Shown piece after piece: positions 12,960-54,599 of a DNA stretch of 64,000 nt. The stretch's first letter is position 1. Each line of letters opens with the position of its first letter. This DNA is from an uncultured delta proteobacterium (GTDB taxonomy: Bacteria > Desulfobacterota > Binatia > UTPRO1), in contig CAVXIU010000006.1 of NCBI GenBank assembly GCA_963761995.1, positions 3,681,684 through 3,745,683 of the forward strand, read 5' to 3'. A program made the translations under genes and the position numbers. The notes under the pieces are model-generated. The model saw nothing but the letters and a program-made list of their open reading frames with translations. It ran no database searches and was not told where the DNA came from.

Positions 12960-15562
12960 TGGCGCCGGTCCGCCGCCGGCACTCGGCCCGCCGGCGCGCG
13001 CTCGCCGTCGCGCTGGCGGCCGCGCTCGTGATGGCGAGCGTGCCCCGCGCGGCACGCGCCGGCTCCTTCATCTTCGCCGGCGAGGCCAACGGCGTGAACG
13101 TGGTCGCACACCCCACCGGCTACACCGGGAGCGGCGGGACCGTGAGCGTGACCGTCTGCATCGACCCGACCTCGGCCAACGCCGCGTCCATGGAGCAGTC
13201 GGTGCGGAACGTCGTCACGACCTGGAACGCGCTCTCGGCGACGAGTCCCAACCTGCTCTTCGAGGACGACAACAACATCGGCTCGGCCCAGATCGATTTC
13301 GAGTCGACGGCGCTCCACGAGGTCGGCCATTGTCTCGGCCTCGGACACCCCAACATCTCGACCGAATCCCTGCTCTCGGGCAGCGACCTCAATTACACCA
13401 AGTCGACCGACGGCGCCGACAACGTCTACAACCGCAACGCGGGGGCCGACGGCATCATCGGCTCGAGCGACGACGGCCGCGGCGACGACGCGAACCTGCA
13501 CTGGTTCCGGAGGTCCAACGACGACCCCTTCACCCTCGCCGCCACGGTCGACGGCAGCACCTACAGCCGCACCGTCGGCGATCTCCCCGCGGGGCACACC
13601 TTCCCCGCCAACGCCGACCGCACCGTCGCGGCGCTCCTCGGCTACGACGACACCGAGGCGGTGATGCAGCAGGGCGCCTTCGGCGACGAGGACCAGCGCC
13701 ACGTCGCCGCCGACGACGTCGCGACGCTGCGCCTCGGCATGAGCGGCCTCGACATGACGGCGGGCACGGCCGACGACTACACGATCGCGCTCAGCTACGC
13801 CGGGCTCACCACCAGCTGCAACATCGTGCTCGATTTCGACAACGCCCAGACCGGCTTCGCGCAGTGCAGCGCCAACGGCGTCTTCCTGAACGGCACCCAC
13901 ATCGCGATCACGACCGCCAACGTGTACTTCAACGCCGGGTACAACTGGTTCTTCAACAGCGTGGTCGCGCCGTCGCCGACCCCGACGCTGTCGCCGACCC
14001 CGACCCGCACCACCACGCCGACCCCGACCACGACCGCCACCCGCACGGCGACGCCGACCCCGACCCGCACCACGACCCCGACGCCGACACGGACGGCGAC
14101 GCCGACGCGGACCGCGACGCCGACCAGGACCGCCACCCCAACCGCGAGCGCCACGCCCACGCGCACCGCGACCCCGACCGCGACCCCGACGGCGACCGTC
14201 ACCGCGACCGCCACGCGCACGGCGACGCCCACCGTCACGGCGACCGTGACGGCCACACCGACCGCGACCGAGACCGCCTCGCCGACGTCGACCCCGAGCC
14301 CGACGCTCACCACCACGCCGACCCCGACCGAGACCGCGAGCCCGACCCCGACCCTGAGCGCGACGCCGACCGAAAGCCCGAGCCCCACCACGACGCCGAC
14401 GCCGACGGCGACGACCACCACGACGCCGACCCCGACGCTCACCGCCACTCCGACCGCGACCGAGACACCGACGCCGACGCTCACGGCGACCGCGACCCCG
14501 ACCCCGAGCGCGACGCCGAGCCCGACCCCGAGCCCGACGCCGACCGCGACGCCGTCGGCAAGCCCGACGCTGACCCCGACGCCGCACGCCACCTGCACGC
14601 CCGCGCCGACGCCGGCGGCGGAGTCGCCCGTCACGAGCGGCGCCGCCAAGTGCAAGCGCGGGATCGCGAAGCAGGCGTCGAAATTCCTGGCGCTCGAGAC
14701 CAAGGCGCTCGAACGGTGCGACCAGGCGACCGTCAAGCAGGGCGGCGCCGGTCCCTGCCCCGACGCCGCCGCGACGGCGAAGATCGCGCTCGCCGCGAGC
14801 AAGCTCGCGACCGCCGTCGGCAAGGTGTGCGGCGGCGCCGACAAGCAATGCGGCGGCAACCTCGCCGGCGAGGAGTCGCCCGCGGGCCTCGGCTGGCCCG
14901 GCGTCTGCCCGAGCTTCGGCGGGTCCACCGATCCCGCGTGCACGGCCGCGATCGGCGATTGCGCCGACATCGCCGCCTGCATCGCCTGCGTCGGCGGCGC
15001 CGCCGTCGAGGGGGCGCGCGCCCTCGCCTACGACGATCTGGTCCCGAGCGTCGCCGCGCCCGCGCTCAACAAGTGTCAGCGCGCGATCGGCAAGGCCACC
15101 GCCCGCTTCGCGCTCGCCAAGGAGCAGCGCCTGCGCTCGTGCTGGGACGCGCGCGCCGCCGGCAAGCACGGCGAGCGCTGTCCCGATGCCGCCGCGGCGG
15201 CCGGTAGCCCGGCACAGAAGGCCGCGCTCGCGATCGCCAAGGCCGACGCCAAGCGGGTCGTCACCATCTGCAAGGCCTGCGGCGGCGCCGACAAGGCCTG
15301 CGACGACACGGTCGTGAGCCCCGGCGCGGTCACCGTCGCCGGCAGCGGCGGCAGCGACGACCTGACGCCCGCCGCGATCGGCTTCCCCGCGACCTGCCCC
15401 GCCGTGCAGCTGCCCGAGGGCGGCGCGTCCTGCGACCGTCCGATCGCGACGCTCGCCGACCTGATCGAGTGCACCGCCTGCATCGCCGACCACGAGGTGC
15501 TCTGCGTCGATCGCCTGCGGGTGCCGCAATTCACGGCTTACCCCTGCGAGTGCCGCGGTTAG
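12959..15562 (+). CDS. Secreted metzincin zinc metalloprotease with a ~210-aa Pro/Thr linker and a duplicated Cys-rich C-terminal domain.
   Basis: Signal peptide, then [11 protein letters not shown] (HExxHxxGxxH), then the PT-rich region, then two copies of a CKRGIAKQ.../CQRAIGKA... cysteine-rich module. 867 aa. Confidence 0.8.
13960..14610 (+). repeat. Low-complexity coding repeat (TPTPTxTAT)n encoding the Pro/Thr linker of the metalloprotease.
   Basis: Visible ~9-18-bp periodic ccgac[cg]ccgac units. It also produces spurious antisense ORFs. Confidence 0.7.
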
Positions 15563-25007: not shown

Positions 25008-28000
25008 ATGGTGGCCCCCACCCGCGTTCGCCGTAGCGCCACAGGCGCCCCACTCGTCGCCGTCGCCGTGGTCGCGGGCCTCCTACTCGCCGCCGGACCC
25101 GCCGCGGCCCAATCGATCTCCAGCACCTCCGTCAACACGGCCGGCAGCACCGGCAACTCGGGTGACGGCAACGGCTCGCGCCGCTCGTCGGTCGACACCC
25201 AGATCAACACCAGCACACAGTTCAAGACCCGCTTCGCCTGGAACATCAGCGCCGACGTCATCCCCGCGAGCACCCGCGACACCAACGGCACCGCACAGCA
25301 CAATCTCTCCTTCAACGTCACCGCCCCGGGCGGCTACCGCCTCGACGTCGGCCAGGACCGGGTCGGCATCGTGCAGCGCAACGCCGACATCAGCGGTTGC
25401 GACGGCGCCGCCGACATCTCCAGCTCGAACGGCAGTCAGAGCGGCGCCACCTTCCTCTCCGGCAGCCTGGACCTCGGCGATCCGGGCGGCATCTCGAACG
25501 GCGGGGGCGACTCCAACACGCCCTTCAACCAGTCCACCAGCGCGGCGTTCACCGGCAACAGCAACGGCGGCGCGGTCGGCCACTCGCTCTCCTTCAGCTG
25601 GACCGGCACCACCCGCAGCAACTCCTGCGAGGCCGCCGTCCGCCTCGGTGAAGAAAGCAGCGTAACCGACTGCGGGGCCTGCACCTATCCCGGGACCCCG
25701 AGCCGCACCCAGACCAGCGACGGCCACTTCGTGACCGTCACCCTGACCAACTACTGCGGCAACGGCACCGTCGACGACGTCGGCGTGGTGAACGAAGACT
25801 GCGATCCCCCCGGCGTGTGCTGCACCTCGAGCTGCAAGTTCGCCTCGAGCGCGACGCTCTGCCGCGGCTCGGCCGGCGTCTGCGACCCGCAGGAGACCTG
25901 CACCGGCTCGAGCGCGACCTGCCCCGGCAACACGTTCCTGTCGAGCGCCAACGTCTGCCGCAACTCGAGCGGCGTCTGCGACCCGGCGGAGAACTGCACC
26001 GGCTCGAGCGGGCCCTGCCCCGGCAACACCTTCCTGTCGAGCGCCAACGTCTGCCGTCCCACGGTCAGCATCTGCGACACCGCCGAGAACTGCACCGGCT
26101 CGAGCGGCCCCTGCCCCGGCGACGCCTTCGCCTCGAGCTCGACGCCGTGCCGCGCCTCCGGCGGCATCTGCGACGTCGTCGAGAACTGCACCGGGTCGAG
26201 CGCGGCCTGTCCCGGCAACGGCTTCGCGTCGAGCTCGACGCCCTGCCGGCCCTCGGTCGCCATCTGCGACGCCGCCGAGAACTGCACCGGCTCTGGCGCC
26301 GCGTGTCCGGGCGACGGCAAGAGCACCGCCGTCTGCCGGCCGGTGGGCGGCGTCTGCGACGTCGCCGAGAGCTGCGACGGCGTGAACAACGCCTGCCCCG
26401 CGAACGGCTTCGTGTCGGCCGCGACCGTCTGCCGCGGCGCCGGCGGGGTCTGCGACCTCGCCGAGAATTGCTCCGGCTCGAGCGCGGCCTGTCCCGGCGA
26501 TGCCAAGAGCTCGGCCGTCTGCCGGCCCTCGGGCGGCGTCTGCGACGTCGTCGAGAGCTGCGACGGATCGAACGACAACTGCCCCGGCGACGGCTTCCAG
26601 TCGAGCGCGACGGTCTGCCGTGGCTCCGGCGGCGTCTGCGACCTCGTCGAGAACTGCACGGGCTCGGGCGCGGCCTGTCCGGGCAACGACTTCGAGCCCG
26701 CGACCACCACCTGTCGAACGGCCGTGGACGTCTGCGACACGGTGGAGAGCTGCACCGGCTCGGGCGCGGGCTGTCCGTCCGACGCCGTCGAGCCCGTGAC
26801 GACCGTCTGCCGCGGCGCGGTCAGCAACTGCGACGTCGCCGAGAGCTGCGACGGCGCCGCCACCGCCTGTCCCGCCGAAGCGGTCGAGCCCAACACCACC
26901 GTCTGCCGCGCCGTCGCCGGCGTCTGCGACGTTGCCGAGAACTGCGACGGCACCACGACGGACTGCCCCACCGACGACTTCGAGCCCAGCACGACCGCGT
27001 GTCGCGGCTCGAGCGACGTCTGCGACGCCGCCGAGAGCTGCACCGGCTCGGCGGTGGACTGCCCGGCCGACGGCGTGCAGCCGAACACCACCGCGTGTCG
27101 CGCCTCGACCGGCATCTGCGACGTCGTGGAGAGCTGCGACGGCGTCACCAAGCCCTGTCCGGCCGATGCCGTGAAGCTCGCGACCGACGTCTGCCGGCCG
27201 GCCGCCAGCTCGTGCGACGCGGTCGAGAGCTGCACCGGGTCCGGCGTCAATTGCCCCGTCGACGCCTTCCTCGCCAGCAGCACGATCTGCCGGCCGACCG
27301 CCGGCCTCTGCGACGTCAGCGAGCATTGCACGGGGACGGGCCCGAACTGCCCGGGCAACTCGTTCGTGAGCTCCGCGACCGCGTGCCGCGCCTCGCTCGG
27401 CTCGTGTGATCCGGTCGAGAACTGCACCGGCTCGGCGGCCGCCTGCCCCGCCAACACGCTGACGCCGAACGGCACCGTCTGCCGCGTCGCGGCGGGCGTC
27501 TGCGACGTCGGCGAGGTCTGCAGCGGCTCCAGCCCGACGTGTCCCCCGGACGGCTTCGTATCCAGCTCTTCGCTTTGCCGCGGGCCGGCCGGCGTCTGCG
27601 ACGTCGCCGAGAACTGCACCGGCTCGAGCGCCCTCTGCCCCACCGATGGGTTCGCGCTCAACAGCCAGGTCTGCCGCGGCGCCGTCGGCGGCTGCGACGT
27701 CGTCGAGACCTGCACGGGGTCGGGCGTCGCCTGCCCGTCCGACGGCATCCAGCCCGCGGCGACGGTCTGCCGGCCGTCGGCCGGACCCTGCGACATCGTC
27801 GAGCAGTGCGGCGGCGGCGACGGCATGTGTCCGAGCGACACCTTCGAGCCGTCCTCGACGGTGTGCCGTCCGGACGCCGGCGACTGCGACGTCGGGGAGA
27901 GCTGCACGGGAACCGGCGTGGCCTGTCCTGCCGACGTGATCGAGCCCGACGGAACGACCTGCGACGACACCGAGAGCTGCACCGTCAGCGACATGTGCGT

Positions 28001-28652
28001 GGCCGGCGCCTGCACCGGCGAGTCGTCGATGTGCGGCGACGGCACGCATCAGGGCAGCTGCAACGAGGAGTGCGACGACGGCAACACCACGAGCGGCGAC
28101 GGCTGCTCGGCGACCTGTCAGCTCGAGTTCGGCTGCGAAGCGGGCCCCGAGGTCGGCTGCAAGCTTCCCACCGCGCCCAAGCAGGCGCAGTTCCAGATCT
28201 CGGACAAGAGCCCCGACAGCAAGGACCGCCTGCAGTTCAAGTGGAACAAGGGCGCCGCGACCACCCTCGCCGAGTTCGGCACGCCGCTCACCACCACCGA
28301 GTACGTGCTGTGCGTCTACGACGGCGGGGTGTTGAAGGCGAAGGCCAAGATCCCGCCCGGCGGCCTCTGCGCCGGGAAGCCGTGCTGGAAGGCGAAGTCG
28401 ACCGGCTTCCAGTACAAGGACAAGGACCTCACGCCGGAAGGCATCCAACAGGTCAACCTGAAGGCGGGCGTCGCCGGCAAGGCGAAGATCCAGGTGAAGG
28501 GACGGGGCGACAACCTGTTGACGCCGACCCTGCCCTTCGCACAGCCGGTGGTCGTGCAGCTGAAGAGCAGCGACGGGGTCTGCTGGAGCGCGACCTTCAA
28601 CGCGCCGGCCACCAAGAACATCAGCTCGGTCTTCAAGGACAAGACCGACTAA
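25008..28652 (+). CDS. Giant secreted cysteine-rich repeat protein: ~230-aa N-terminal domain, ~45 tandem ~40-aa four-Cys repeats, a Myxococcus-type CDDGN disulfide repeat and a ~150-aa C-terminal domain.
   Basis: Signal peptide. The repeat consensus is C(R)xxxGxCDxxExCTGxxxxCPxDxFxxSxTx. One CNEECDDGNTTSGDGCSATC module is present. 1,214 aa with no frameshift. Confidence 0.85.
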   Translation: MVAPTRVRRSATGAPLVAVAVVAGLLLAAGPAAAQSISSTSVNTAGSTGNSGDGNGSRRSSVDTQINTSTQFKTRFAWNISADVIPASTRDTNGTAQHNLSFNVTAPGGYRLDVGQDRVGIVQRNADISGCDGAADISSSNGSQSGATFLSGSLDLGDPGGISNGGGDSNTPFNQSTSAAFTGNSNGGAVGHSLSFSWTGTTRSNSCEAAVRLGEESSVTDCGACTYPGTPSRTQTSDGHFVTVTLTNYCGNGTVDDVGVVNEDCDPPGVCCTSSCKFASSATLCRGSAGVCDPQETCTGSSATCPGNTFLSSANVCRNSSGVCDPAENCTGSSGPCPGNTFLSSANVCRPTVSICDTAENCTGSSGPCPGDAFASSSTPCRASGGICDVVENCTGSSAACPGNGFASSSTPCRPSVAICDAAENCTGSGAACPGDGKSTAVCRPVGGVCDVAESCDGVNNACPANGFVSAATVCRGAGGVCDLAENCSGSSAACPGDAKSSAVCRPSGGVCDVVESCDGSNDNCPGDGFQSSATVCRGSGGVCDLVENCTGSGAACPGNDFEPATTTCRTAVDVCDTVESCTGSGAGCPSDAVEPVTTVCRGAVSNCDVAESCDGAATACPAEAVEPNTTVCRAVAGVCDVAENCDGTTTDCPTDDFEPSTTACRGSSDVCDAAESCTGSAVDCPADGVQPNTTACRASTGICDVVESCDGVTKPCPADAVKLATDVCRPAASSCDAVESCTGSGVNCPVDAFLASSTICRPTAGLCDVSEHCTGTGPNCPGNSFVSSATACRASLGSCDPVENCTGSAAACPANTLTPNGTVCRVAAGVCDVGEVCSGSSPTCPPDGFVSSSSLCRGPAGVCDVAENCTGSSALCPTDGFALNSQVCRGAVGGCDVVETCTGSGVACPSDGIQPAATVCRPSAGPCDIVEQCGGGDGMCPSDTFEPSSTVCRPDAGDCDVGESCTGTGVACPADVIEPDGTTCDDTESCTVSDMCVAGACTGESSMCGDGTHQGSCNEECDDGNTTSGDGCSATCQLEFGCEAGPEVGCKLPTAPKQAQFQISDKSPDSKDRLQFKWNKGAATTLAEFGTPLTTTEYVLCVYDGGVLKAKAKIPPGGLCAGKPCWKAKSTGFQYKDKDLTPEGIQQVNLKAGVAGKAKIQVKGRGDNLLTPTLPFAQPVVVQLKSSDGVCWSATFNAPATKNISSVFKDKTD
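25800..28020 (+). repeat. Tandem ~120-bp coding repeats (Cys-rich modules) inside the 25008-28652 gene.
   Basis: About 18 near-identical units in direct orientation. They are the source of long spurious antisense ORFs. Confidence 0.7.
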
Positions 28653-28659
28653 CAAATCG

Positions 28660-28810
28660 AGGGATCTCTCCCTCGCCCCGGACGGGCAAAGCCCGTCCGG
28701 GGCGAGCGCGAGCCGGCGAGTGCGAGATCGCAGACCGCCTTCGTACGACCCACTCCCGGCTCGCTCTCGCTCGGCCGCGCGCTCCGCGCGCGGAATTGCT
28801 GCTTGATTCC
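28660..28810. repeat. Structured intergenic element (three consecutive hairpins), copy 1 of 3. REP- or terminator-like.
   Basis: Hairpins gagggaTCTCtccctc, ccccggacgggCAAAgcccgtccgggg and ggccgcgcgcTCCgcgcgcgg. Stems differ from copies 2 and 3 by compensatory changes. Confidence 0.5.
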
Positions 28811-38067: not shown

Positions 38068-38131
38068 AGGCATTTCCCGAGCGGTGATTTGCCCTTGCAC
38101 GCCCGGCCCCCTCACTCTAAACACCTCCGTC

Positions 38132-38755
38132 GTGACCTCACGTCTATTGATTCGGGTCGCCGGCCTCGTCTTGGCCGTCGGCGTCGTCTGGTACATCACC
38201 CATCTGAACGCCGAGCTGTCCCGCATGCGCACCGCCACCCCGGCGGCGCCCGCGGCCGCTCCCGCGGCGCCGGCCGCTCCCGCCGCGCCCGTCGCCGGAG
38301 CGGCAGGCAGCACCGCTCCTCGCACGCTCACCCCCGAGCAGCGCGAGGCGATGATCGCGCGCCTCACCTCCTCCACCGACGGCAGCACCACGACCGGACA
38401 GCCGGTCTGGTTCGCGACGGTGCCGAACAACCCCGAGGCGGCCGCCTTCCAGAAGACGCTCCAGAGCGTGTTCGAGGATGCCGGGTGGAAGGTGCAGGGC
38501 AATGCCCCGATCCGCTTCCCGATGAAGGCCGGCATCTACGTGTTCGCGGCCGACGAGGATCCGCCCGGATACCTGTCGCAAGTGAACGACGCCTTCGAGG
38601 CCGCCGGGCTCCCCATCACCTCGGGGCGAGGCTACCGCGAGTTCGCGCGCCAGAAGAAAGAGGAGAACCCGTCTTGGGTCGGCCTCGAGCTCGGCCCGGA
38701 CGAGGTCTACGTCATCGCCGTCGGACGACGCCCCGAACCCGACCCGGCGTCGTAG
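38132..38755 (+). CDS. Hypothetical membrane-anchored protein with an Ala/Pro-rich linker.
   Basis: GTG start, one TM helix, (PAA)n linker, globular C-terminus. Structured repeat copy 2 follows the stop. Confidence 0.5.
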   Translation: MTSRLLIRVAGLVLAVGVVWYITHLNAELSRMRTATPAAPAAAPAAPAAPAAPVAGAAGSTAPRTLTPEQREAMIARLTSSTDGSTTTGQPVWFATVPNNPEAAAFQKTLQSVFEDAGWKVQGNAPIRFPMKAGIYVFAADEDPPGYLSQVNDAFEAAGLPITSGRGYREFARQKKEENPSWVGLELGPDEVYVIAVGRRPEPDPAS

Positions 38756-38757
38756 TT

Positions 38758-38860
38758 CAAAAGGGGGATCTCTCCCCCTTCGCCGCCGCGGCAAAGCCGC
38801 GTCAGCTCATCCCCCGGCTCGCTCGCGCTCGGCCGCGCGCTTTCGCGCGCGGAGGCCGAA
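38758..38860. repeat. Structured intergenic element, copy 2 of 3.
   Basis: Hairpins gggggaTCTCtccccc, cgcggcAAAgccgcg and ggccgcgcgcTTTcgcgcgcggaggcc. Confidence 0.55.
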
Positions 38861-38932
38861 TCCTCTTGGGGTCTGGTTCCGAACTCTACGCCGACCGCCC
38901 ACGACACGCCGGAGTCGGATTTACGCCTAACC

Positions 38933-41900
38933 TCACTTGCACTTGATCGTGCCGGGTGGCGCCACGAACGCGCAGGCAGGCGACTGTGGTCCCGGGAAGA
39001 GCGCGTCGCCGCATTGATTGGTGCTCGCGTAGGGCGGATCGAGGATCAGCGTGCCCCGCATGGGCAAGCTCGCCGGTAGCGGATAGCCACCGTTCCGCGC
39101 CTGCACCGAGAACCGGACCTGGCCCGGCACCTTGGTGTTCTTCTTGATGAGGATCTTGGTCACGCCCTCGATGAGCGGGACGCCGCCGCCGAGGTTCTTG
39201 TAGAGGAACGTCGTCCCCTTGCTGTTCGCCTTCCACCCGGCATTCGTCAGCGCGTCGAAGAGACCCGGCGGGATGGCGGCGTCGACGATCGTCGTGCCGG
39301 CGCCGTCGACGAAGATGATGCGCACGCCGTCGCTCGCGGGATCGATCGCCGCCGACGGTACCGTCATGGTGCCCGAGAACTTGAAGCGGTGGTCGCCGAT
39401 CGGCTGCGCCAGCTTCTGCATGCTGAGCTTCGGCTTCACGGCCCGCACGTCGGCGGCGTTGGTGCAGGGATCGCAGGCGTCGCCGAGGCCATCGCCGTCG
39501 CCATCCTCCTGGCCCGGATCGACCACCGTGAGGCACACGTCCTCGAGGTCGCAGGTGCCGTCGCCGTCGCCGTCGGGCTGACCGGTGTCGGCGGGACAGC
39601 CGACGCCGCTTCCAGTGCAGAACTCGGGGACGTCGCAGGTGCCCGCGGTCGGCCGGCACTCGACGCTCGACGATTGCAAGGCGTCGCTCGGGCAGTTGGC
39701 GCCGCCGCTGCAGGTCTCCGCCAGGTCGCAGACGCCGGCCGAGGGACGGCAGGTGACGGCGTTGGTCGCGAACCCGTTCGGCGGACAGACGGACGAGCTG
39801 CCGGTGCAGCTCTCCGCGAGGTCGCAGACGCCCGTCGCCGGGCGGCACGTCACGGCGCTCGACGCGAAGCCGTCGCTCGGGCAGGCGGTCGTGGAGCCGT
39901 CGCAGCTCTCGGCCAGGTCGCAGACGCTCAGCGCCGCGCGACAGACGCTCGAGCTCGACGCCACCGCGTCACTCGGACAGACGTTCGAGCCGCCCGTGCA
40001 CTGCTCGACGGCGTCACATGTCGAGACCGCGGCGCGGCAGACGGTGGACGACGCCGCGAAGCCGTCGCCGGGACAGGCGGCGCTCGACCCGCTGCACTTC
40101 TCGACCGCGTCGCAGGTGGAGACGGCGCCGCGGCAGACCACGGTATTGGCGGCGAAACCGTCGTTCGGACACGTCGCGCTACCGCCGCTGCAGCTCTCGG
40201 CGACGTCGCAGATACCAGTCGCGGCCCGGCACGCCGTCCCGTTCACCACCAAGACGTCGGCCGGACACGACGGGTCGTTGCCGGTGCAGCTCTCGGCCAC
40301 GTCGCAGGAGCCGCCAGCGCCGCGGCAGACGGTCGCCGACGACGCGAACCCGTCCGGGGGGCAGGCGGTGCCGAAACCGGTGCAGGTCTCGGCGACGTCG
40401 CACACGTCGCCCGCGATGCGGCACGGCGTACCGCCGGGCACGACGCCATTCGCCGGACAGTCGCTACTGGAACCGTCGCAACTCTCGACCGCGTCGCAGT
40501 CGTCGATCGCCGGACGGCAGATCGCCGTCGACTTGCCGTCGCTCGGGCAGGCCGCGCCGCCACCGGTGCAGACCTCCCCGTGGTCGCACACGCCGCCCGC
40601 GGGGCGGCATACCGCGCCGTTGGCGGCGAACTGGTTGCTCGGGCAGGCGGCGCTCGAGCCGGTGCAGCTCTCGGCGAGGTCACAGCCGCCCGCAGCCGAG
40701 CGACAGACGGTGGATCCCGACACGAAGCCGTTCGTCGGGCAGGCGCCGCTCGCCCCCGTGCAGGTCTCGGCGACGTCGCAGATCCCGGCCACGGTGCGGC
40801 ACGAGGTGCCGACGGTCACGTACTGACAGCTCGCCGTGCAACACGAGGTCGAGCTGCCGTTGGCCGCGCCCTGATCGCATTGCTCGCCGGCCTCGATTGC
40901 GGCGTTGCCGCAAATGCTCCCCTTGGTGATGACGAGCGTGTCGAACACGGCGTCGTTGTTGTCGATCGACTTCAGGGTGAGCGTGGTGTCGCTGACGATC
41001 CGCACCTCGCTGAACTGGAAGCGCGCGAAGCTGCAGTACTGGCCGTTGACGCCGTTCGAGCAGTTGTTGGCGAGCCAGGGACAGTACTCCTTGGAGTGGA
41101 AGAAGCCCTGGCCGAAGGGGCCGCCGCCGTCGACCTGGGCGGCGCTGTCGAGGCTGGCACCGCCGCCTCCGGTCATGATGTAGCGGGTGGACAGGCCGTC
41201 CGAGCCGCCGGCCCCGCCGATCTGGTAGTGGTCGACGAGCCCCGAGCGCTCGTAGATGTGATCGTGGCCGTCGAAGACGATGTCGACGCCGTGTTGCTCG
41301 AAGATCGGACCCCAGTTGTCGCGCACCGTGTGGTCGCTGCCGATCGAGGCGAAGCCGTTGGCACACGAGTACGGCGTGTGGTGCAGGAACACGAACTTCC
41401 ACTTGCGAGTGGTGGCGGCGAGGTCGGCGGCGAGCCAGCTGTTCTGGAGCGAGACCGCCCCCGGATTGGAATCGAGCACCACGAAGTGGGCGTTGCCGTA
41501 GTCGAACGAGAAGAAGCGCTCCTCCTGGCCCGCCGGCGCGTTCCGCGGCAGCGCGTGCATCTTGATCTCGACCGAGTTCGCCCAGTTACCGGCGCCGACG
41601 TTGTTCAGATCGTGGTTGCCGAGGACCGGAATGAACACCGCGCGCCGCAGGATCTGGTTCTTGAACTGCGAGATGAAGACGTTGTTGTCCCAGTCGGACT
41701 GGGTGCCGTTCTGGTAGGCGTTGTCGCCGACCGTCATCAGGAGCGGCGGGTCGTCGGCGTGGAGGATGTTGCCGAGCTGGCCCTGGGCGCTCGAGCCTTG
41801 GCCCCAGTCGCCGATGACGGTGAAGTAGAGCTCGCTCGGGTCGCTCGTCGCCTTGAAGGTCTGGAAGTAGGTCGTGGCCAGGACCTCGGTGCCGTTGGTG

Positions 41901-42208
41901 AGGAGCCGATAGTAATAGCGCGTCCCCGGAAGGAGGCCGGTGAGCGGCACGGTGTGGCAGGTGCCGGCGGTGCCGACCTCGCAGCTGGCGGCCTGGGCGA
42001 CGGTGACCTGGGAACCGAGCCCCGTCGTCGTCCCGTACTCGACCTTGCTGTCGCCGGCGACGTCGGTCCACCACAGGATGGTCATGGTCGTGGTGAGCGC
42101 GGCCGGGTTCTGGATCAGAGGGCCGCGGGTCAGGGTCTGCGCCGAAGCGGCGGGCGCCAAGTAGACCCCCAGAAGCACGAACACGATCAGCGCACGAACG
42201 ATCTTCAC
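38933..42208 (-). CDS. Secreted calcineurin-like metallophosphoesterase (purple-acid-phosphatase-like) fused to ~13 Cys-rich repeats, a TSP3-like Asp-rich segment and a C-terminal beta domain.
   Basis: GTG start with signal peptide KIVRALIVFVLLGVYLAPAASA. Phosphoesterase motifs GDWGQG, GNHD, HHTPYS and GHDHIYER. The same CRxxxGxCDxAExCTG repeats as in the 25008 gene. DGDGDGTCD...DGDGDGLGDACDPC. 1,091 aa. Confidence 0.8.
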   Translation of the reverse strand: MKIVRALIVFVLLGVYLAPAASAQTLTRGPLIQNPAALTTTMTILWWTDVAGDSKVEYGTTTGLGSQVTVAQAASCEVGTAGTCHTVPLTGLLPGTRYYYRLLTNGTEVLATTYFQTFKATSDPSELYFTVIGDWGQGSSAQGQLGNILHADDPPLLMTVGDNAYQNGTQSDWDNNVFISQFKNQILRRAVFIPVLGNHDLNNVGAGNWANSVEIKMHALPRNAPAGQEERFFSFDYGNAHFVVLDSNPGAVSLQNSWLAADLAATTRKWKFVFLHHTPYSCANGFASIGSDHTVRDNWGPIFEQHGVDIVFDGHDHIYERSGLVDHYQIGGAGGSDGLSTRYIMTGGGGASLDSAAQVDGGGPFGQGFFHSKEYCPWLANNCSNGVNGQYCSFARFQFSEVRIVSDTTLTLKSIDNNDAVFDTLVITKGSICGNAAIEAGEQCDQGAANGSSTSCCTASCQYVTVGTSCRTVAGICDVAETCTGASGACPTNGFVSGSTVCRSAAGGCDLAESCTGSSAACPSNQFAANGAVCRPAGGVCDHGEVCTGGGAACPSDGKSTAICRPAIDDCDAVESCDGSSSDCPANGVVPGGTPCRIAGDVCDVAETCTGFGTACPPDGFASSATVCRGAGGSCDVAESCTGNDPSCPADVLVVNGTACRAATGICDVAESCSGGSATCPNDGFAANTVVCRGAVSTCDAVEKCSGSSAACPGDGFAASSTVCRAAVSTCDAVEQCTGGSNVCPSDAVASSSSVCRAALSVCDLAESCDGSTTACPSDGFASSAVTCRPATGVCDLAESCTGSSSVCPPNGFATNAVTCRPSAGVCDLAETCSGGANCPSDALQSSSVECRPTAGTCDVPEFCTGSGVGCPADTGQPDGDGDGTCDLEDVCLTVVDPGQEDGDGDGLGDACDPCTNAADVRAVKPKLSMQKLAQPIGDHRFKFSGTMTVPSAAIDPASDGVRIIFVDGAGTTIVDAAIPPGLFDALTNAGWKANSKGTTFLYKNLGGGVPLIEGVTKILIKKNTKVPGQVRFSVQARNGGYPLPASLPMRGTLILDPPYASTNQCGDALFPGPQSPACAFVAPPGTIKCK

Positions 42209-42332
42209 GTCACCCTCGTTGGTATTGATGGCGGCCCTGCCAGGAGGCCGGCTCGAAAGGTTGGCGCCGGCAACCATACACGCCCAACCGGCCAGGATGG
42301 AAGGAAAATCTGCACCAGTGTAGAGCAGCTCC

Positions 42333-43433
42333 ATGACCACCTCACGGGCGTCCCTTCTCGTCGTCGCGCTGGTCGTCTCGGGGCTCACGGGCTGTGCCCC
42401 CCGGGCCGCTCGGACCCCGAACCCGCCGCCCGCGTCGGGCCCTTTCCGGACCCTCGCCGGCGCCCCCACCCACCCGGAGTGCGGGCCGCCGAAGCGACCC
42501 GGAGCCCAGGGCACCGCCCCGCGCTGCGTGGTCTCGTTCGGGCGGTCCTTGACGTCCATGGGGACGAGCCCCGACGGCACGCTCACGGTGGTGTCGCTCA
42601 TGGACACCCAGCCGACCACCTGGCGCCTCCCCGCCTTGACCTTCGCCGGCGAGCTTGTCCCCCCGCCCCTCGAGCCCGGGGCCAATCCGCACGAGGAGCG
42701 GGAATCGCCGCAGGCGATCGCCGTCGCGGGCGACGCCCGGACCGCACTCCTCGCCGCCGGCGACGAGATCCTGCGCTACGACCTCGCGAGCGGGCGTCCA
42801 GTGGGAGCCTTCGAGGGTCCGGAGGGCCTCGGCATGGTCGACCACCTGGTGTGGTCGCACGATGGACGTTCGCTCCTGATCGCGAGCGCCGGCGACGGCA
42901 AGGCCAGGATCCTCGATGCCACGAACGGGCGCGTCGTCCGCGAGCTCGCCGTCCCGGGTCGCGCGGCCGAGCTCGCGTTCGATCACGACGCTCGGCGCGC
43001 CGCCGTCGGCACCGAGACCGGCACGGTCGCGATCTTCGAGCTCGCGGCCAAGGGGGCGAAGCCCCGCGTCCTCACCGCCTCGACCCAGGAGATCACCGGG
43101 CTCGCCTTCGTCGGAAACCAGCTGGTCACGGCCGCCCGCGACGGCCACGTGCGGATCTACGACGCCGCCAGCGGCAAGCCGCTCCGCGACGCCACGACCG
43201 GCTTCCCCATCACCCACTTCACGGTCAGCGCCGACGGCCTGCTCGGGGCGGCCTCGGACGACCGGCACGTGCTCCGCATCGTCGCGCTTCCCGGCGGCGT
43301 CGTGCGCGCCAGCCTCGTCTGGCACCAGGCGAGCATCACGGCGCTCGCGTGGGCTGCCGGGCCGACGCTCCTGGTGGCGGACAACGACGGCGAGCTCGCC
43401 GCTTGGGAGGTCCCGAGCGGCACCTCGCCGTAG
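42333..43433 (+). CDS. WD40/beta-propeller lipoprotein.
   Basis: Lipobox LTGC. Repeated strand motifs (LVWSHDG, ASAGDGKARILD, RDGHVRIYD). Confidence 0.75.
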   Translation: MTTSRASLLVVALVVSGLTGCAPRAARTPNPPPASGPFRTLAGAPTHPECGPPKRPGAQGTAPRCVVSFGRSLTSMGTSPDGTLTVVSLMDTQPTTWRLPALTFAGELVPPPLEPGANPHEERESPQAIAVAGDARTALLAAGDEILRYDLASGRPVGAFEGPEGLGMVDHLVWSHDGRSLLIASAGDGKARILDATNGRVVRELAVPGRAAELAFDHDARRAAVGTETGTVAIFELAAKGAKPRVLTASTQEITGLAFVGNQLVTAARDGHVRIYDAASGKPLRDATTGFPITHFTVSADGLLGAASDDRHVLRIVALPGGVVRASLVWHQASITALAWAAGPTLLVADNDGELAAWEVPSGTSP

Positions 43434-46355: not shown

Positions 46356-46400
46356 CGACGCCCGGGCACGCGCCGCGGGATCACGTTTGCGAGCCTGGTC

Positions 46401-49400
46401 TCAGTGGACCGGTTCGAGGAGCGTCTTGCCGGTCAACTTCCAGCCCTTGGACTGCTGGATCCAGAGGCCGCGCACCACCCACTCCTCGTCGCCGACGTAC
46501 ACGTGGGTCGTCATGTCTTGCACCGACATGCCGAGGTCGCCGTATGCCTTCAGCGAGACGATGAAGTAGCCGAGACCAGCCTTGGTCTTCATCTGGTAGA
46601 TGCCGCCGCCGGCGCGCGCGCCGCGGTTCTTGTACCGCACGGACTTCACGTTCTGCACCTCGAGCGATCCCCGCACCAACGAGGCACGGAAGATGACCCC
46701 GTCGGCCGCGTCGCGGAGCTCGATCACGAAGTGGTTGTTGATGAAGTCGACCGGCGCGCCAATCGGAGTGATCAGCCGGCCATGGAAGTCGAACATGTCC
46801 TGCTGGGTGCCGTGCCCGAACTTGATGCGGGCCGGGTCGGCGCAGATCGGCTCGTTGCAGTTGTTGAGGCACTCGTCGAGCGGCTGCTGCGGCTTGTCGG
46901 TGCGGCAGCCGCTGATGGTGTTGCCGTCGTCGCACGTCTCCGTGTTGTTGGACTGGACGACGCCGTCGCCGCACCTGGTGCAGTCGAGGCGGCACCCGTT
47001 CACGCTCGGGACGACGTCCGGCGGATCGCAGGTTTCAAAGTCCGGAGCGCCGTTTTGGACCACGAAGTCGCCGCAGTTCGCCCCGATGCAGATGCCGTTG
47101 TTGGGGTGCAGGCAGAGGAAGCCCATCGACTGCGAGTCGCACGAGTCGTCGGTGCAGGGGTTCACGTCGTCGCAATCGACGGGATCCATGCCGACGCAGG
47201 TTCCGAAGCCGTCGGCCTCGTCGAGCTGGGTGCAGAAGCTGCCGTCGTTGCAAGGCGTACCCGCCGGCAGGAACGAGTCGGCCGGGCAGAACTTGTTGCT
47301 GCCGTCGCAGCTCTCTTCCTGATCGGCCGTGCTGGCGGCCGGGCGACAGACCGTCGAGTTCGGCTCGACGGAATCACCCGGGCACGACGGGCCGCCGCCC
47401 GTGCAGCTCTCGGAGATGTCGCACACGCCACCGGAGCCGCGGCAGACGGTCGCGCTCGACTCGAAGGAGTCGGCCGGACAGGCCGGGCCGGTGCCGGTGC
47501 AGTTCTCCGCCACGTCGCAGACGTCGACGACGGACCGACAGACGGTCGCGCTCGGCTCGAAGTCGTTCGCCGGGCAATGCGACGTTGGTGCCGTCGCAGT
47601 TCTCCTCGACGTCGCAGACGCCCGTGGTGGCGCGGCAGAGGGTGGCGCTGCTGGCGCGCGCGTCGGTCGGACAGGCCGCCGTGCTGCCGGTGCAGTTCTC
47701 GGCGATGTCGCAGACGCCCGTCGCCGAGCGGCAGGTCGTCGAGCTCGCCTCGAAGGCATCGGTCGGACAATCGTCGTTGGTGCCGTCGCAATCCTCGTCG
47801 ACGTCGCAGACGTCGGCCGCCGGACGGCAGAGCGCCGTGCTCTTGGCGTCGGTCGGGCAGTTCGCGCCGGACCCGGTGCAGTTGTCGGCCGTGTCACAGA
47901 CGCCGACACTGGCGCGGCAGAGAGTCGTGCTCGGCTCGAAGTCGTCGGTCGGACACGGCGCCGTCGAGCCGGTGCAGTTCTCGGCAACGTCGCAGACGCC
48001 GTCTGGTGGCGCGGCAGACGGTCGCCGCCGACTGGAAGCCGTTGGCCGGGACAATCGTCGTCGGAGCCGTCGCAGCTCTCGACCACGTCGCAGATGCCGG
48101 CCGACGGCCGACAGACCGCCGTGCTCTTGCTGTCGCCCGGGCAGGCTACGCCGGATCCGGTGCAATTCTCGACCAGGTCGCAGACGCCGACCGCACCGCG
48201 GCAGACGGTCGCCGCGCTCTTGAAGCCCTCGGCCGGACAATCATCGTCGGAGCCGTCGCAGCTCTCGACCACGTCGCAGACGCCGCCCGACGGCCGGCAG
48301 ACCGCCGTGCTCTTCGAGTCGCCCGGGCAGGGCGCGGTCGACCCGGTGCAGTTCTCCGCCAGGTCGCAGACGCCAGCCGCGCCGCGGCAGACCGTTGCCG
48401 CCGATTGGAAGGAGTTGGACGGACAGGTGTTGGCAAAGCCGTCGCAGCTCTCGGCGATATCGCAGACGCCGGCGCTCGGACGACAGACCGCCGTGCTCTT
48501 CGCATCGCTCGGGCAGGCCGCACCCGACCCCGTGCAGTTCTCAGAGGTATCGCAGATGCCGACGGAGCCGCGGCAGAGGGTCGCCGAGGACTTGAAGGCG
48601 TCCGCCGGACAATCGTCGTCGGAGCCGTCGCAGGTCTCAGTCAGGTCGCAGACGCCGGCGGAGCCGCGACAGAGCGCGGTGCTCTTGTCGTCGCCGGGAC
48701 AGGCGGCAGCGGAGCCGGTGCAGTTTTCGGTCAGGTCGCAGACGCCCGCCGAGCCGCGGCAGACCGTCGAGCTCGACACGAAGCCGTTCGGGGGACAGGC
48801 GTTGCTCGAGCCGTCGCAGCTCTCGGTAACGTCGCAGATGCCGCCCGTGGGCCGGCAGACGGCCGTGCTCTTGGAATCGCCAGGACACGCTGCACCCGAG
48901 CCGGTGCAGTTCTCGGCGACGTCACAGACGCCGCCCGAGCCGCGGCAGACCGTCGAGGACGACGCGAAGCCGTCCGCGGGACAGTTGTTGCCGACGCCGT
49001 CGCAGCTCTCGGCGACGTCGCAGACGCCGGCCGAGCCGCGGCAGACCGCCGTGCTCTTGCTGTCGCCCGGACACGCCGCGCCAGAGCCCGTGCAATTCTC
49101 CTGGAGATCGCAGACGCCGCCGGAGCCGCGACAGATGGTCGACGCCGAGGCGACGCCGTCGCCCGGGCAGGCCGCCGCGTTGCCTGGACAGTTCTCGACG
49201 ACGTCGCAGACGCCGGCCGAGGCACGACACGGGGTCGCCGCCGAGACGAACGCGTTGGCCGGACAGACCGAGTTCGACCCGTTGCAGTTCTCGGCGGCGT
49301 CGCAGACCCCCGCCGAGGCGCGACACGTGGTCGCGGCCGAGGCGAAGCCGTCGCCCGGACAGGCCGCCCCGCCGCCGCTGCAGTTCTCGGCGACGTCGCA

Positions 49401-50591
49401 GAGGTGACGGCGCCGCGACAGACGGTCGCTGACGACGCGAAGCCGTCGCCCGGACAGACCGTGCTCGAGCCGGTGCAGTTTTCGACGACGTCGCAGACCC
49501 CGCTCGAAGCACGACACGGGGTGGACGACGACGCGAAGCCGTCGTTCGGACAGAGGTTGCCGACACCGTCGCAACTCTCGGCCACGTCACAGATCGCGCC
49601 GCTCGACGGACGACAAACCGCGGTGCTCTTGGCATCGGCCGGACACGCCCCGGTACCCCCGGCGCAGTTTTCCAGCGGGTCGCACACGCCGCCAGACGCG
49701 CGGCACAGCGTCCCCGCCGACGCGAACAGGCAGGTCGAGGTGCAACACCCGCCGGGCGGGTCGCACTGCTCGGCACTCCCATCAGTCCCACTCACGGTAT
49801 CTGTTTGGGAATCGCCGCAGATGGACGTGTAGAATGCAAGGTCGACGTGCGACCGGTTGTTCTCCGTAAAGCCGGTGCCCTGTCGGTGGGCTCGCCGTGG
49901 TGCCAAAGAAGGTATTCGCCGGCGAAAAGGGGCCGCCGATGGCAGTGGCCGCTTCGATCAGGACGTTGACCGAAAAGCTGGCGACGCCCGAACCGACGCG
50001 CCAGAGCGAGTGCACGCCCTGGGCGGTACCGTTGCCCGTCAAGCCTCGGATGTTGGCGCCGGTGAGCGCCTGCGTCGTCGCGTCACTCACCACCGTGCCC
50101 GCGCCGCTGAACGTGAGCGTCACCCGCGTGAAGACCGTGCCGGGTCCGCCGTTGATCATCGCGGTCTGCCCGGTATAGCGGATGGTGGTCGCGGTGTCCG
50201 TCGACCAAATGAACATCTCGGTGCCGCTCGGCTCCGTCCCGACGCTGTTCATCTTGAGGCCGAACGGCAGCGTCGTGAGTCGGTTGATCCCGATGTACAG
50301 ATTCGAGAACGCGCTCGCCGTGCCGGCGCACGAATAGTTGCCGCCGCCGGCGAGCTTCTCCGAGCCGGCGACCGGCAAGCTACAGCTCCACCCCGCGCCC
50401 GGCGCAGTCGTGGGCCCGTTGCTGATGACGATCGCGCTTGCCGGCGCCGCCGCAACCAGCAGTCCGAGGACCGCGAGGGTCGCCATGCTGACCAGAGCCG
50501 AGCCGTGCCGTTTTGCGCCTGCCGGTGTCGCAGTGCCGAACGCACGAGTCTGGGCCGCCCAAATTCTCCGCTGTGGCCGAGCTAACGTCAT
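46401..50591 (-). pseudogene. Decayed paralog of the giant Cys-rich repeat protein, with at least 4 frameshifts.
   Basis: Signal peptide plus a ~230-aa N-terminal domain (frame of 49782..50876 from MTLARPQRR, ATG complement 50589-50591). Repeats continue in the frame of 48731..49906, then 46401..49574, with a middle segment only readable in the 47374..48240 frame. The C-terminal domain and a CDDGN module are retained. Confidence 0.6.
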
Positions 50592-50640: not shown

Positions 50641-50967
50641 TCACCACGACCCGTGCGATCCGTGGCTGCCGTGAGACCCATGGCTGCCGTGCGATCCATG
50701 GCTGCCGTGACTCCCGTGGCTGCCGTGGGACCCGTGGCTGCCGTGCGACCCGTGGCTGCCGTGACTCCCGTGGCTGCCATGCGAGGCATGGGAGAGATGT
50801 TGGGCAAGCAAAATGTTCTCGTTGTTGGGTTCGGAGCGCAGCGCCTGAGCCGCCTCGGACGCGTCGAGTCCGACATCGGGCTTCAGCGCCTGACGCGCCT
50901 CGTCCCGACTGAGAAAATCCACCGGCGTCTTCCGCAGTAACGGCAGCCCCTTCTCTTTGTCGCTCAT
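50641..50967 (-). CDS. Small protein: 62-aa leader followed by (His-Gly-Ser)x15-Trp. Candidate His-Xaa-Ser repeat precursor (HxsA-like) or His-rich metal-binding peptide.
   Basis: A strong SD (GAAGGAG) sits 7 nt upstream of the ATG. The N-terminal half is well composed (MSDKEKGLPLLRKTPVDFLSRDEARQALKPDVGLDASEAAQALR...). It lies 40 bp after the Tat-protein gene and 50 bp before the Cys-rich pseudogene. Confidence 0.65.
   Translation of the reverse strand: MSDKEKGLPLLRKTPVDFLSRDEARQALKPDVGLDASEAAQALRSEPNNENILLAQHLSHASHGSHGSHGSHGSHGSHGSHGSHGSHGSHGSHGSHGSHGSHGSHGSW
50645..50790 (-). repeat. Tandem 18-bp/9-bp coding repeat (cgtggctgccgtg[ac]gacc)x8 encoding (HGS)n.
   Basis: Perfect 9-bp periodicity. 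Reads as SHGSHG... on the minus strand. Confidence 0.8.
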
Positions 50968-52861: not shown

Positions 52862-54344
52862 ATGGTCGCCGGCGGAGTAGCGCCTTCGCCCTCGACGGTC
52901 GCGATCGACCGGCTGGGATTTTTTCGTTGGGGACGGATCGCCGAGAAAGTCCTGATCACGACGGATGGCGGCGACTGGGCCTTTCTGACCGAGCCGGAGT
53001 TCGCGCAGCTGCTCGCTGGCGAGATCCTGGAAGACCACCCGCGGTTCGCTGAGCTCCAGGGCGGCGGCTTTCTCCGCACGGGCCTCGATCTCGACGCGCT
53101 CGCGAGCAGGGTCGCACGGCAGCGTGGGCCACGTCGCGCGCGGGCCGGAGCTGCACGTCGTGACGATGAGCCGCCGCGCCGGGCAGGAAGCTCCATCGGC
53201 GGCGCCCGGCGCGCCCGCATGGACCTCGACCGCGAGACGGCCGAGAGGATCGTCGAGGTCGCGCTCCAGAGCAGATCGCCGTCGGTCTCATTCGAGCTGC
53301 AGGCGGCACGCCGGCGAGCCGTTGCTGAACGCCGACGGAGTCCGGCATCTCGTCGAATTCGCGCGGACGACGAACGCACGCGCCGAGGGGAAGACGCTCG
53401 GGTTCACGCTCGTCAGCAACTTGAGCGCCATGACGGCGGAGATGGCGGAGTGGCTGATCGCGAACGAGGTCGCCATCCGGACGTGGCTCGACGGACCGGC
53501 ACGAGCTCCACGAGTGGAACCGGAGATACACGTTGGCGGGAGCGCATGCGGACGTGGTCCGGTGGATCGAGTGGTTCGACCGCCGATACCGCGAGCTCGG
53601 GCTCGATCGCCGACGTCTGGCACGTCGACACAAGGATGACGACGACGCGCCGGACGCTGTCGGCCTGGCGCGAGGTCGTGGACGAGTACGTGGCGCGCGG
53701 GATGCGGTCCATCCAGCTCAGGCCGCTGAGCCCGCTCGGCTTCGACGCCGACGCGTGGCAGACGATCGGGTACACCGTCGAGGAATACCTGGCGTTCTAC
53801 GACCGCGCGTTCGGCTATATTGTTGGAGTTGAATCGCAGCGGGGTGCGCCTCGCCGAGAGGACGGCGTCGGGGTTCCTGAACGGCATCCTGTCCTCCGGG
53901 GATCCCGCCCTGCGGGAGATCCGGTCGCCGTGCTCGGCCGGGACGAGCGAGCTCGCATACGACGTCGATGGGCGGATATTCCCGGGCGACGAGGCGCGGC
54001 GCGTCGACGCGTTCGGGGATCCCATCTTCGCGCTCGGCAACGTGCGGGAGCTCAGGATCGCCGACATCGTCCGGCATCCGACGGCCCGGGCGATTGCGGC
54101 GGCGTCGCTCCTCGACGCGCAGCCGATGTGCGCGGACTGCTGGAACAAGCCGTTCTGCGGCATCTCGCCCGTGTCGACGTACGTCCGGGACGGGGACCTC
54201 TTCGGGCAGCGGCCGCGGTGCTTCGAGTGCAAGGAGCATATGGCGGTCTCCCGCACCCTGTTCGCTCGGCTGGCAAACGAGAGCGACCGGGAGACGAAGG
54301 AGATCCTCGAGCGCTGGACGGCCGGAAGCGGCCGCCCGCGCTAG
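52862..54344 (+). pseudogene. Radical SAM/SPASM maturase, HxsB-like, with an N-terminal KVLITxDxGDW extension. At least 4 frameshifts and the Cx3Cx2C motif is lost.
   Basis: The frame order is 2 -> 0 (FELQ|GEPLLNADG, caused by a 7-bp insertion cacgccg) -> 1 (WLDGPA|ELHEWNRRYTLAG) -> 2 (IADVWHVDTR...YDRAFGYIV) -> 0 (SPASM: SPCSAGTSELAYDVDGRIFPG, CADCWNKPFCG, RPRCFECKE). The expected Cys-motif region reads LHVVTMSRRAGQE. Confidence 0.6.
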
Positions 54345-54345
54345 C

Positions 54346-54440
54346 TCAGAAGGGGGATCCCTCCCCCTTCGCCGCCGCGGCAAAGCCGCGTCGGCTCGTC
54401 CCCCGGCTCGCATTCGCTCGGCCGCGCGCTAACGCGCACG
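54346..54440. repeat. Structured intergenic element, copy 3 of 3.
   Basis: gggggaTCCCtccccc, cgcggcAAAgccgcg and gccgcgcgcTAAcgcgcacgg. About 90% identical to copy 2. Confidence 0.5.
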
Positions 54441-54599
54441 GAGATCGTTGTCGTGGATCCCTCTCCTACTCGATCGGGCCAGTCAGGGGGCCAGCGGGCA
54501 GCGAGAACGCCCGGCCCCCTCCCGTCGTTGAGCAGGCGAAAAATGCCTGGCGAATCGGCGGCCTGATGTGGTAACCCCCCGAGACGGACCGTCGCCCAA

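Follow-up and report, generated by a model that had tools for sequence, protein, structure and literature searches.

Repetitive extragenic palindromic sequences (REPs) occur mostly within 20 bp of the 3' ends of open reading frames (ORFs), their GTAG termini often supply the TAG stop codon, and their sub-families are set apart by complementary changes in the stems (Di Nocera et al., PMC3733652). We analyzed a stretch of 64,000 nucleotides from an uncultured delta proteobacterium (assembly GCA_963761995.1, contig CAVXIU010000006.1, positions 3,681,684 to 3,745,683 of the forward strand; hereafter the window), in which an earlier note had pointed out three copies of an intergenic element made of three hairpins. 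The element belongs to a family that is repeated, conserved in structure, largely constant in position and polarity relative to genes, polymorphic at its insertion sites, and highly conserved between genomes. We consider it probable that this family is a dispersed, non-autonomous mosaic palindromic element, similar to REPs and to the bacterial interspersed mosaic elements (BIMEs) that they form, which inserts strand-specifically 3' of stop-codon motifs. Its carriers are a clade of uncultured, soil-dwelling, Polyangiaceae-like Myxococcota.

All three copies were recovered where the earlier note had placed them, on the + strand, and each lies directly 3' of a gene as claimed, beginning 5 nt past the stop codon (Table 1). 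Folding gave back the same three hairpins, and the paired changes separating copy 1 from copies 2 and 3 are real: hairpin 1 is GAGGGA/TCCCTC in the former versus GGGGGA/TCCCCC in the latter, and the stem of hairpin 2 is wholly different. The positions given for the copies hold, while their extents had to be enlarged, as the unit runs on into a degenerate tail, to about 38881 for copy 2 and to about 54469 for copy 3. Identity between copies 2 and 3 is 89% across 102 nt (repeat family D20), and the 28-mer CCCGGCTCGCNNNCGCTCGGCCGCGCGC, common to all three copies, occurs 3 times in the window compared with 0.01 expected. The significance resides in the whole unit, because the 16-mer of hairpin 1 alone, with 3 mismatches allowed, was found 3 times against 2.7 expected in this 70% GC window, which is not above chance. 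Fold z-scores were -1.9 for copy 2, -3.3 for copy 3, and -7.4 for copy 1. A covariance-model search of the window returned only the three known copies, and an Rfam scan of the whole window at the gathering threshold gave 0 matches.

The earlier note had staked its proposal on the existence of further copies, and these were found at 33 genome loci and 25 metagenome loci, with about 59 hits of the covariance model. Scanning one genome per species for the exact 28-mer gave the 33 genome loci, 32 of them real and most of them from two Polyangiaceae metagenome-assembled genomes (MAGs); a few carrier MAGs bear the label Binatia, Thermodesulfobacteriota or 'delta proteobacterium'; a single Actinomycetota match was due to chance. 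The covariance model, built on 33 copies and run over 306 kb of locus DNA (window included), detected 40 copies at E<=1e-5. Metagenome contigs, scanned independently with the 21-mer of hairpin 1, yielded 27 loci; the element is present in 25 of them, and 19 reach E<=0.001 with the model. Altogether, further copies occupy about 58 places in Polyangiaceae-like MAGs and soil metagenome contigs, many of them at contig ends. Some matches were discarded: in two AT-richer, unrelated contigs (L049 and L055) the 21-mer stands as a lone hairpin, followed in L055 by CCTTTTT, and these are ordinary terminator-like hairpins; three 28-mer matches in viral contigs correspond to one unrelated coding sequence. 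The plasmid collection that was scanned contained no match.

The core of the unit measures about 95 nt, or about 125 nt with its optional tail. In the copies that we call type A, the order is a stop codon (usually YTAG or TTGA), a spacer yTCAn, hairpin 1 (consensus AAGGGGGA-tctc-TCCCCCTT), hairpin 2, an unpaired segment, a GC hairpin, and the optional tail. Hairpin 2 combines a fixed top, CGCGGC-aaa-GCCGCG, with a lower stem that varies freely between copies yet remains complementary, in at least 8 compensated variants (GCCG/CGGC, GCGAC/GTCGC, CGAAG/CTTCG, GCTC/GAGC, CGGTCCG/CGGACCG, CGGTGAG/CTCACCG, GCGAG/CTCGC, and GTTGC/GCGAC). The unpaired segment is conserved with the consensus TCAaCCCCCGGCTCGCTCGCGCTCGG, that is CCCGGCTCGC…CGCTCGG, the GC hairpin with the consensus CCGCGCGC-tgc-GCGCGCGG, and about one third of the copies have the tail AGGGCGTTGTCTTGGGTCAGCCTCC-TAG. 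The tail stem of copy 3, GGAGA/TCTCC, differs from the consensus GGAGG/CCTCC by a compensated change. Type B, which comprises copy 1 of the window, L005, L014, L023, L025, and L007:2461-2557, has the 3' half of type A, with GAGGGA/TCCCTC as hairpin 1 and CCCCGGACGGGC/GCCCGTCCGGGG as hairpin 2. Copy 1 also forms an extra long hairpin (Table 1), in which an inverted partial duplicate pairs with the normally unpaired conserved CCCGGCTCGC..CGCTC segment.

Modules are also added, duplicated, and lost. An optional hairpin of 19-21 nt (GTACTC-gga-GAGTGC, or the compensated GTACCC-gga-GGGTGC) sits between GGCTCGCT and CGCTCGG in L054, L057, L058, and L061, and one genomic locus was seen both with this short hairpin (L058) and without it (L043). 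The 3' modules are duplicated in L018 and L028 and the left arms in L014 and L052, while hairpin 2 is missing from L011, L030, and L046. Head-to-tail tandems with a period of 125 nt, in which one TAG is shared between units, occur in L015 and L019, and long-form units are bracketed TAG…TAG, which fits either a duplication of 2-3 bp or a right end that repeats the target motif. No terminal inverted repeats (TIRs) were detected when the first and last 35 nt were compared, the score being 12 versus a shuffled mean of 11.6, with 245 of 500 shuffles at least as high. In five copies (L014 2614-2627 on the - strand, L052 691-735 on the + strand, L017, L021, and L025) the left end up to the hairpin-1 loop, namely stop codon, spacer, 5' arm, and TCTCT, is tandemly duplicated, always with the break in or near that loop, which could mark a nick site or a slippage site.

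Conservation of the structure was evaluated on a model-based alignment of 40 copies with 26 pairs, using 500 shuffles and slid partners as controls. Results showed that 94% of the cells were paired and that changes on both sides occurred in 13 of the 26 pairs (85 cells), giving a covariation score of 0.236 compared with 0.072 for the shuffles, none of which (0/500) reached it, and 0.02-0.07 for the slid partners. The selection on nucleic-acid structure that the earlier note had argued from three copies is thus supported over 40 copies by stem covariation far above both controls. Covariation was confined to hairpins 1 and 2. None was seen in the GC hairpin, in part a consequence of having its 5' arm in the search pattern.

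The position relative to genes was assessed by calling an ORF coding-like when the GC content at third codon positions (GC3) was >=0.8 over its last 80 codons, with distances counted to the G-run of hairpin 1; this test replaced a crude GC3 gene caller, which is unreliable for Cys-rich repeat genes. A same-strand coding-like ORF ends 3-28 nt upstream of 30 of the 37 genome copies, at a modal distance of exactly 7 nt, and such an upstream stop is present for 15 of the 18 assessable copies of the independent metagenome set, making 45 of about 55 for both sets together. The stop of a convergent gene within about 30 nt of the right end was found for only 6 of 39 copies. One copy is clearly reverse-oriented (L027:1596-1690), and in L016 a second, partial copy (E = 0.02) stands tail-to-tail with the first, each facing its own convergent gene. 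Pfam assignments of 150 neighbouring ORFs indicated that the genes next to the element are functionally unrelated.

The left flank of the element is also constrained in sequence. The stop codon is TAG in 19 of 30 cases versus a background of 19-34%, and among 47 left flanks we counted T at position -10 in 36, A at -9 in 30, and G at -8 in 27. Further upstream, position -11 is a pyrimidine in 42 of the 47 (C in 23, T in 19) and G in only 3, though G is common at third codon positions, and position -12 carries A or T in 28. The left tetranucleotide is most often CTAG, and nearly all TGA stops read TTGA, often TTGAT. As the preference at -11 and -12 reaches the last sense codon, it looks like a DNA target preference and not like an RNA function.

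Two other loci deserve a description. On contig CAVZDH010000001 (L007, 2461-5572, - strand), three copies in the same orientation, two of type A and one of type B, lie within 3.1 kb; the stretches between them have a GC content of 0.62-0.69 with no Pfam match and no coding-like frame, and for two of the copies the TAG in front terminates no convincing gene. In L014 (about 2482-2520, - strand), the element occupies the space between a stop codon and the GTG of the next gene, which has a VOC/glyoxalase-like N-terminus, and the terminal GCGGAG of the element, 8 nt before that start, may serve as the Shine-Dalgarno sequence of this gene.

The comparison of orthologous sites revealed that the element comes and goes. 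Between 25 and 39 kb, the window shares synteny with contigs from two MAGs that carry the element (L034 and L035), with orthologous proteins about 66% identical, and in both MAGs the sites corresponding to window copies 1 and 2 are empty. The orthologous site is likewise empty in L067, L068, and L069 and occupied in L036. At the site of copy 1, the protein ends at the same residue (…KDKxD), with the stop TGA in the empty L034 and L035 and TAA in the window. At the site of copy 2, L067, which is the closest relative at 85% identity, shows an unchanged protein tail, …GRRPEPEPAS, followed by TGA and no element; L069 reads ...GCGTCG TAG as in the window, also with no element; and L036 carries a 3'-truncated copy whose hairpin 2 is differently compensated. 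To the right of copy 2, the native flank restarts at CGAACTCTACG, matching the empty site of L035. Since the C-termini agree with and without the element, we conclude that it lies after the native stop, leaves the protein unaltered, and was gained or lost between relatives. Within a single MAG, 17 pairs of copies are >=95% identical, and one of its copies shares 94% identity with window copy 2, against 66% for the orthologous protein. The likeness of copies thus goes up to 94-98%, far above that of the host proteins. Presence and absence at orthologous sites, together with the near-identity of some copies within one genome, favour the REP-like element or small mobile palindrome among the options listed by the earlier note. 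In L067 the empty ortholog of the copy-2 site (793-805) reads TGA-TC-CTCAGAG and so has the hexamer CTCAGA in common with the left end of the family, TAG-CTCAGAA; this could be a footprint, a target preference, or a coincidence.

Considering these results, we propose that the element is, or recently was, non-autonomous mobile DNA. Insertion would be strand-specific and directly 3' of a short T/A-containing motif, YTAG or TTGA, which is the simplest way to account for the polarity. As in a 70% GC genome these motifs are available mostly as stop codons, copies would come to lie 3-10 nt after genes and co-oriented with them; inside genes, YTAG and TTGA are rare at about 93% GC3 and insertions there would also be lost, leaving as survivors those that follow genes in the same direction. 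Because TIRs are absent, hairpins lie subterminally, tandems run head-to-tail, and polarity is fixed, we infer a single-strand mobilization in trans, with an HUH/Y1 transposase as a plausible mobilizer, either similar to the REP-associated tyrosine transposases (RAYTs) or to TnpA of the IS200/IS605 insertion sequences. TTGAT is the known target of ISDra2, which the TTGA(T) left flank resembles. Once in place, co-oriented with the upstream gene and adjoining its stop codon, the unit most likely enters the transcript of that gene as its 3' untranslated region (UTR) and would then fold into stable stem-loops, which by analogy could protect the 3' end or influence termination.

Several observations weigh against this proposal. 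No transposase was found near the copies, Pfam analysis of the ORFs of L007 and L027 and of the 150 neighbouring ORFs giving only ordinary genes, and a phmmer search for Y1 enzymes with approximate queries over about 450 kb of fragments, a weak negative, gave no match. The inverted pair in L027 flanks a histidine kinase and not a transposase, and none of the 58 loci showed a long element sharing the ends of the family. The left tag is YTAG or TTGA, whereas RAYT-associated REPs are defined by GTAG; the unit far exceeds a REP in size and contains several different hairpins; and most copies stand singly in one orientation and not as inverted dimers. Moreover, divergence of the intergenic regions at orthologous sites does not allow the right boundary or a possible duplication to be fixed, and TAG at both ends is also compatible with a duplication of 2-3 bp. 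Finally, wobble pairs do not indicate selection at the RNA level, with 9 G-U pairs against 15 A-C mismatches; the constrained molecule may be an RNA of the + strand or the DNA itself.

Among the alternatives, we regard as unlikely, though deserving serious consideration, that the element is a structured 3'-UTR RNA module selected by the host (a 3'-end stabilizer, a non-canonical terminator, or an element interacting with a protein or the ribosome), kept by selection and not by ongoing transposition. The strict co-orientation with the upstream gene at a modal 7 nt from the stop would suit such a module, as would the compensatory changes in two hairpins, the strongly conserved unpaired segment, and an element identity of 94% between genomes with 66% protein identity. 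The hairpin-2 stems of window copy 2 and L036, compensated in different ways at one and the same site, point in the same direction, and the 5' arm of hairpin 1 (AAGGGGG or GAGGG) reads as Shine-Dalgarno-like and its 3' arm as anti-Shine-Dalgarno-like. However, the element is dispensable, as the orthologous sites of five relatives lack it with the protein ends unchanged; the flanking genes share no common function; and G-U pairs are not in excess over A-C mismatches. Tandems, module duplications, and truncations are typical of selfish repeats, and the sequence preference extends into the last sense codon. The attenuator or terminator family that the earlier note had also offered finds no support as a classical intrinsic terminator, because no U-tract follows any hairpin of the + strand and the terminator scan was silent at the element; only the minus-strand reading of hairpin 1 of copy 2 is followed by a T-run, TTTTGAA. 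A small peptide, or translational reinitiation from the Shine-Dalgarno-like hairpin 1, was rejected on reading the sequence, as no start codon follows hairpin 1.

A rather improbable variant would be a stop-codon-homing element of undescribed mechanism, a TIR-less hairpin mosaic with a conserved single-stranded recognition segment, moved by an unknown, possibly HUH-type, enzyme specific for the 3' side of YTAG/TTGA. Stop codons would be its safe harbours, and it would act as a portable 3' UTR, tuning expression of the host gene through an interaction between its SD/anti-SD-like hairpin 1, 5 nt past the stop, and the terminating ribosome.

Still less credible, in our opinion, is a classical miniature inverted-repeat transposable element (MITE) of a DDE transposase, IS630/Tc1-like or derived from IS5, inserting at TA or CTAG and duplicating TA or TAG. 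IS630 and some IS5 groups do target CTAG or TA, CTAG is the commonest left tetranucleotide, and a unit of about 125 nt is of typical MITE size; furthermore, the left TAG is matched in about one third of the copies by a right end ...CCTCC-TAG, and tandems share one TAG. On the contrary, TIRs are absent, a palindromic CTAG target predicts both orientations where the observed polarity is about 45:6, TTGA-flanked units lack a matching right flank, and many copies have neither tail nor second TAG. Chance likeness of GC-rich hairpins, or local duplications limited to this gene cluster, has a negligible probability: GC-rich palindromes are indeed common in a 70% GC genome and the hairpin-1 16-mer alone does not rise above chance, but the excess of the 28-mer in the window and the dozens of full-length copies at unrelated loci in several genomes and metagenomes already refute it. 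Integron attC sites were also considered and rejected, as the ends are not complementary, no GTTRRRY (R') is visible, and there is no cassette array, the copies being 10-15 kb apart with ordinary genes between them. The non-autonomous REP/BIME-like element inserting 3' of stop-codon motifs remains our preferred reading.

Table 1. Coordinates of the three copies and of their parts in the window.
Feature	Positions	Strand	Sequence or composition	Basis or context
Copy 1, stop codon	28650-28652	+	TAA	ends the 1214-aa disintegrin-repeat ORF 25008-28652
Copy 1, whole unit (type B, long form)	28653-28794	+	spacer CAAAT	covariance model 64 bits, fold
Copy 1, hairpin 1	28658-28675	+	CGAGGGA-tctc-TCCCTCG	
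Copy 1, hairpin 2	28675-28703	+		
Copy 1, extra hairpin	28704-28772	+		
Copy 1, GC hairpin	28775-28793	+		
Copy 2, stop codon (left 'tag')	38753-38755	+	TAG	ends ORF 38084-38755, coding-like, GC3 0.89 in last 80 codons
Copy 2, left spacer	38756-38760	+	TTCAA (family consensus yTCAn)	position-specific composition of 47 left flanks
Copy 2, hairpin 1	38761-38780	+	AAGGGGGA-tctc-TCCCCCTT	fold; in helix 1, 5/7 pairs changed on both sides across 40 copies
Copy 2, hairpin 2	38782-38806	+	conserved top CGCGGC-aaa-GCCGCG, variable lower stem GCCG/C(A)GC	fold, covariation
Copy 2, conserved unpaired segment	38807-38832	+	TCATCCCCCGGCTCGCTCGCGCTCGG	place of the optional hairpin-3 module in other copies
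Copy 2, GC hairpin ('hairpin 3' of the earlier note)	38833-38852	+	CCGCGCGC-tttc-GCGCGCGG	fold; 98% paired, without covariation
Copy 2, degenerate tail	38853-38881	+	AGGCCGAATCCTCTTGGGGTCTGGTTCC (family tail AGGGCGTTGTCTTGGGTCAGCCTCC[TAG])	tail comparison
Copy 3, stop codon	54342-54344	+	TAG	ends the SPASM-domain ORF 53820-54344
Copy 3, whole unit (type A)	54345-54469	+	spacer CTCAG, tail to ...CTCTCCTAC	covariance model 97 bits, fold
Copy 3, hairpin 1	54350-54369	+		
Copy 3, hairpin 2	54371-54395	+		
Copy 3, conserved segment	54396-54421	+		
Copy 3, GC hairpin	54422-54441	+		one mismatch

The genes next to the window copies were also inspected. Upstream genes were assigned by Pfam to a disintegrin-repeat protein (copy 1) and to a SPASM-domain protein (copy 3), while copy 2 has a 223-aa protein of unknown family on one side and a convergent disintegrin/metallophosphatase gene on the other. 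The disintegrin-repeat gene is one of several encoding very large Cys-rich proteins made of DNA repeats of 96 and 186 nt (25008-28652 on the + strand, 38933-42685 on the - strand, and about 46400-49830). These proteins have many Pfam Disintegrin matches (21 and 11 stretches); a purple-acid-phosphatase/metallophosphatase domain is fused to one of them, and they have syntenic homologues in two MAGs. The SPASM ORF before copy 3 is 174 aa long from its first start; the same frame upstream (53124-54344, + strand) contains two in-frame stops, and plausible protein stretches alternate there with Arg-rich nonsense, which suggests that this radical-SAM gene carries frameshifts, either as a pseudogene or through assembly indels. 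About 2-3 kb from it, an ORF of 108 aa (50641-50967, - strand) finishes in 18 consecutive S-H-G repeats (SHGSHG...W*; 18/9-nt DNA repeat family D11) and is, judging from these repeats, a His-Xaa-Ser repeat protein of HxsA type. Elsewhere in the window (13944-14600), a long array of 12/18-nt repeats (CCGACCCCGACG...) within an ORF probably encodes a Pro/Thr-rich low-complexity linker.

Our literature search found no REP or RAYT papers mentioning myxobacteria, and the element would represent a repeat family not described before, from an uncultured and little-studied branch of the Myxococcota. It would also provide a clean natural case in which a short AT-containing target directs a small element to the stop codons of a 70% GC genome, with a near-perfect gene polarity as the outcome. 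In practice, the family could be used as a marker for binning and strain typing of the carrier MAGs, and it would account for assembly breaks, given the many copies at contig ends. Gene callers should be used with caution around it, as the stop codon, and once possibly the Shine-Dalgarno sequence of the next gene, falls at the element boundary. If the mobilizing enzyme were found, recognition of single-stranded DNA hairpins combined with a YTAG/TTGA specificity would extend HUH/REP biology. A specialist would nonetheless not be surprised, because REP-like families abutting stop codons are already known.

Among described systems, mycobacterial interspersed repetitive units (MIRUs) share with our family the co-orientation with flanking genes, the abutment or overlap with the upstream stop, and the ability to sit between a stop and the next start; however, they are tandem minisatellite-like units with small ORFs and not hairpin mosaics. 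The REPINs of Pseudomonas fluorescens are similar as non-autonomous units of about 100 nt with near-identical copies, high conservation compared with host genes, and presence/absence polymorphism. In contrast, a REPIN consists of two inverted REPs forming one long hairpin, while our family strings together unrelated short hairpins, and only window copy 1 has an inverted partial duplicate. The palindrome-associated transposable elements (PATEs) mobilized by the Y1 transposase TnpA of IS200/IS605 also lack TIRs, have subterminal hairpins and a fixed polarity to a short left tetra- or pentanucleotide, carry a similar short motif at the right end, and can form head-to-tail tandems; the conserved internal segment and the variable hairpin 2 of our family have no described counterpart in them, and no cognate TnpA or TnpB was found among the ORFs next to its copies.

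REPs and BIMEs, as known from E. coli, Pseudomonas, and the SMAG repeats of Stenotrophomonas, resemble the family by their many dispersed extragenic copies, mostly downstream of ORFs, by compensated stems, by an unpaired ...TAG tag at one end that often serves as a stop codon, by BIME-like mosaics of modules, and by the absence of TIRs. They differ in that a REP is one palindrome of 20-40 nt, whereas units of our family measure 95-125 nt, with 3-5 different hairpins in fixed order and a conserved unpaired 26-28-mer. Where the tag of REPs is GTAG, ours is YTAG or TTGA, with G in the first position in only 3 of 47 flanks, and a spacer of 5 nt separates it from the stem; REPs also stand as head-to-head or tail-to-tail (HH/TT) dimers. 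As the GTAG tag, the single 20-40-nt palindrome, the REPIN architecture, the TIRs of a DDE MITE, attC, and Rfam all fail to accommodate the element, its sequence features point to a new family, apparently REP/BIME- or PATE-like in its working and yet not a member of any named one.

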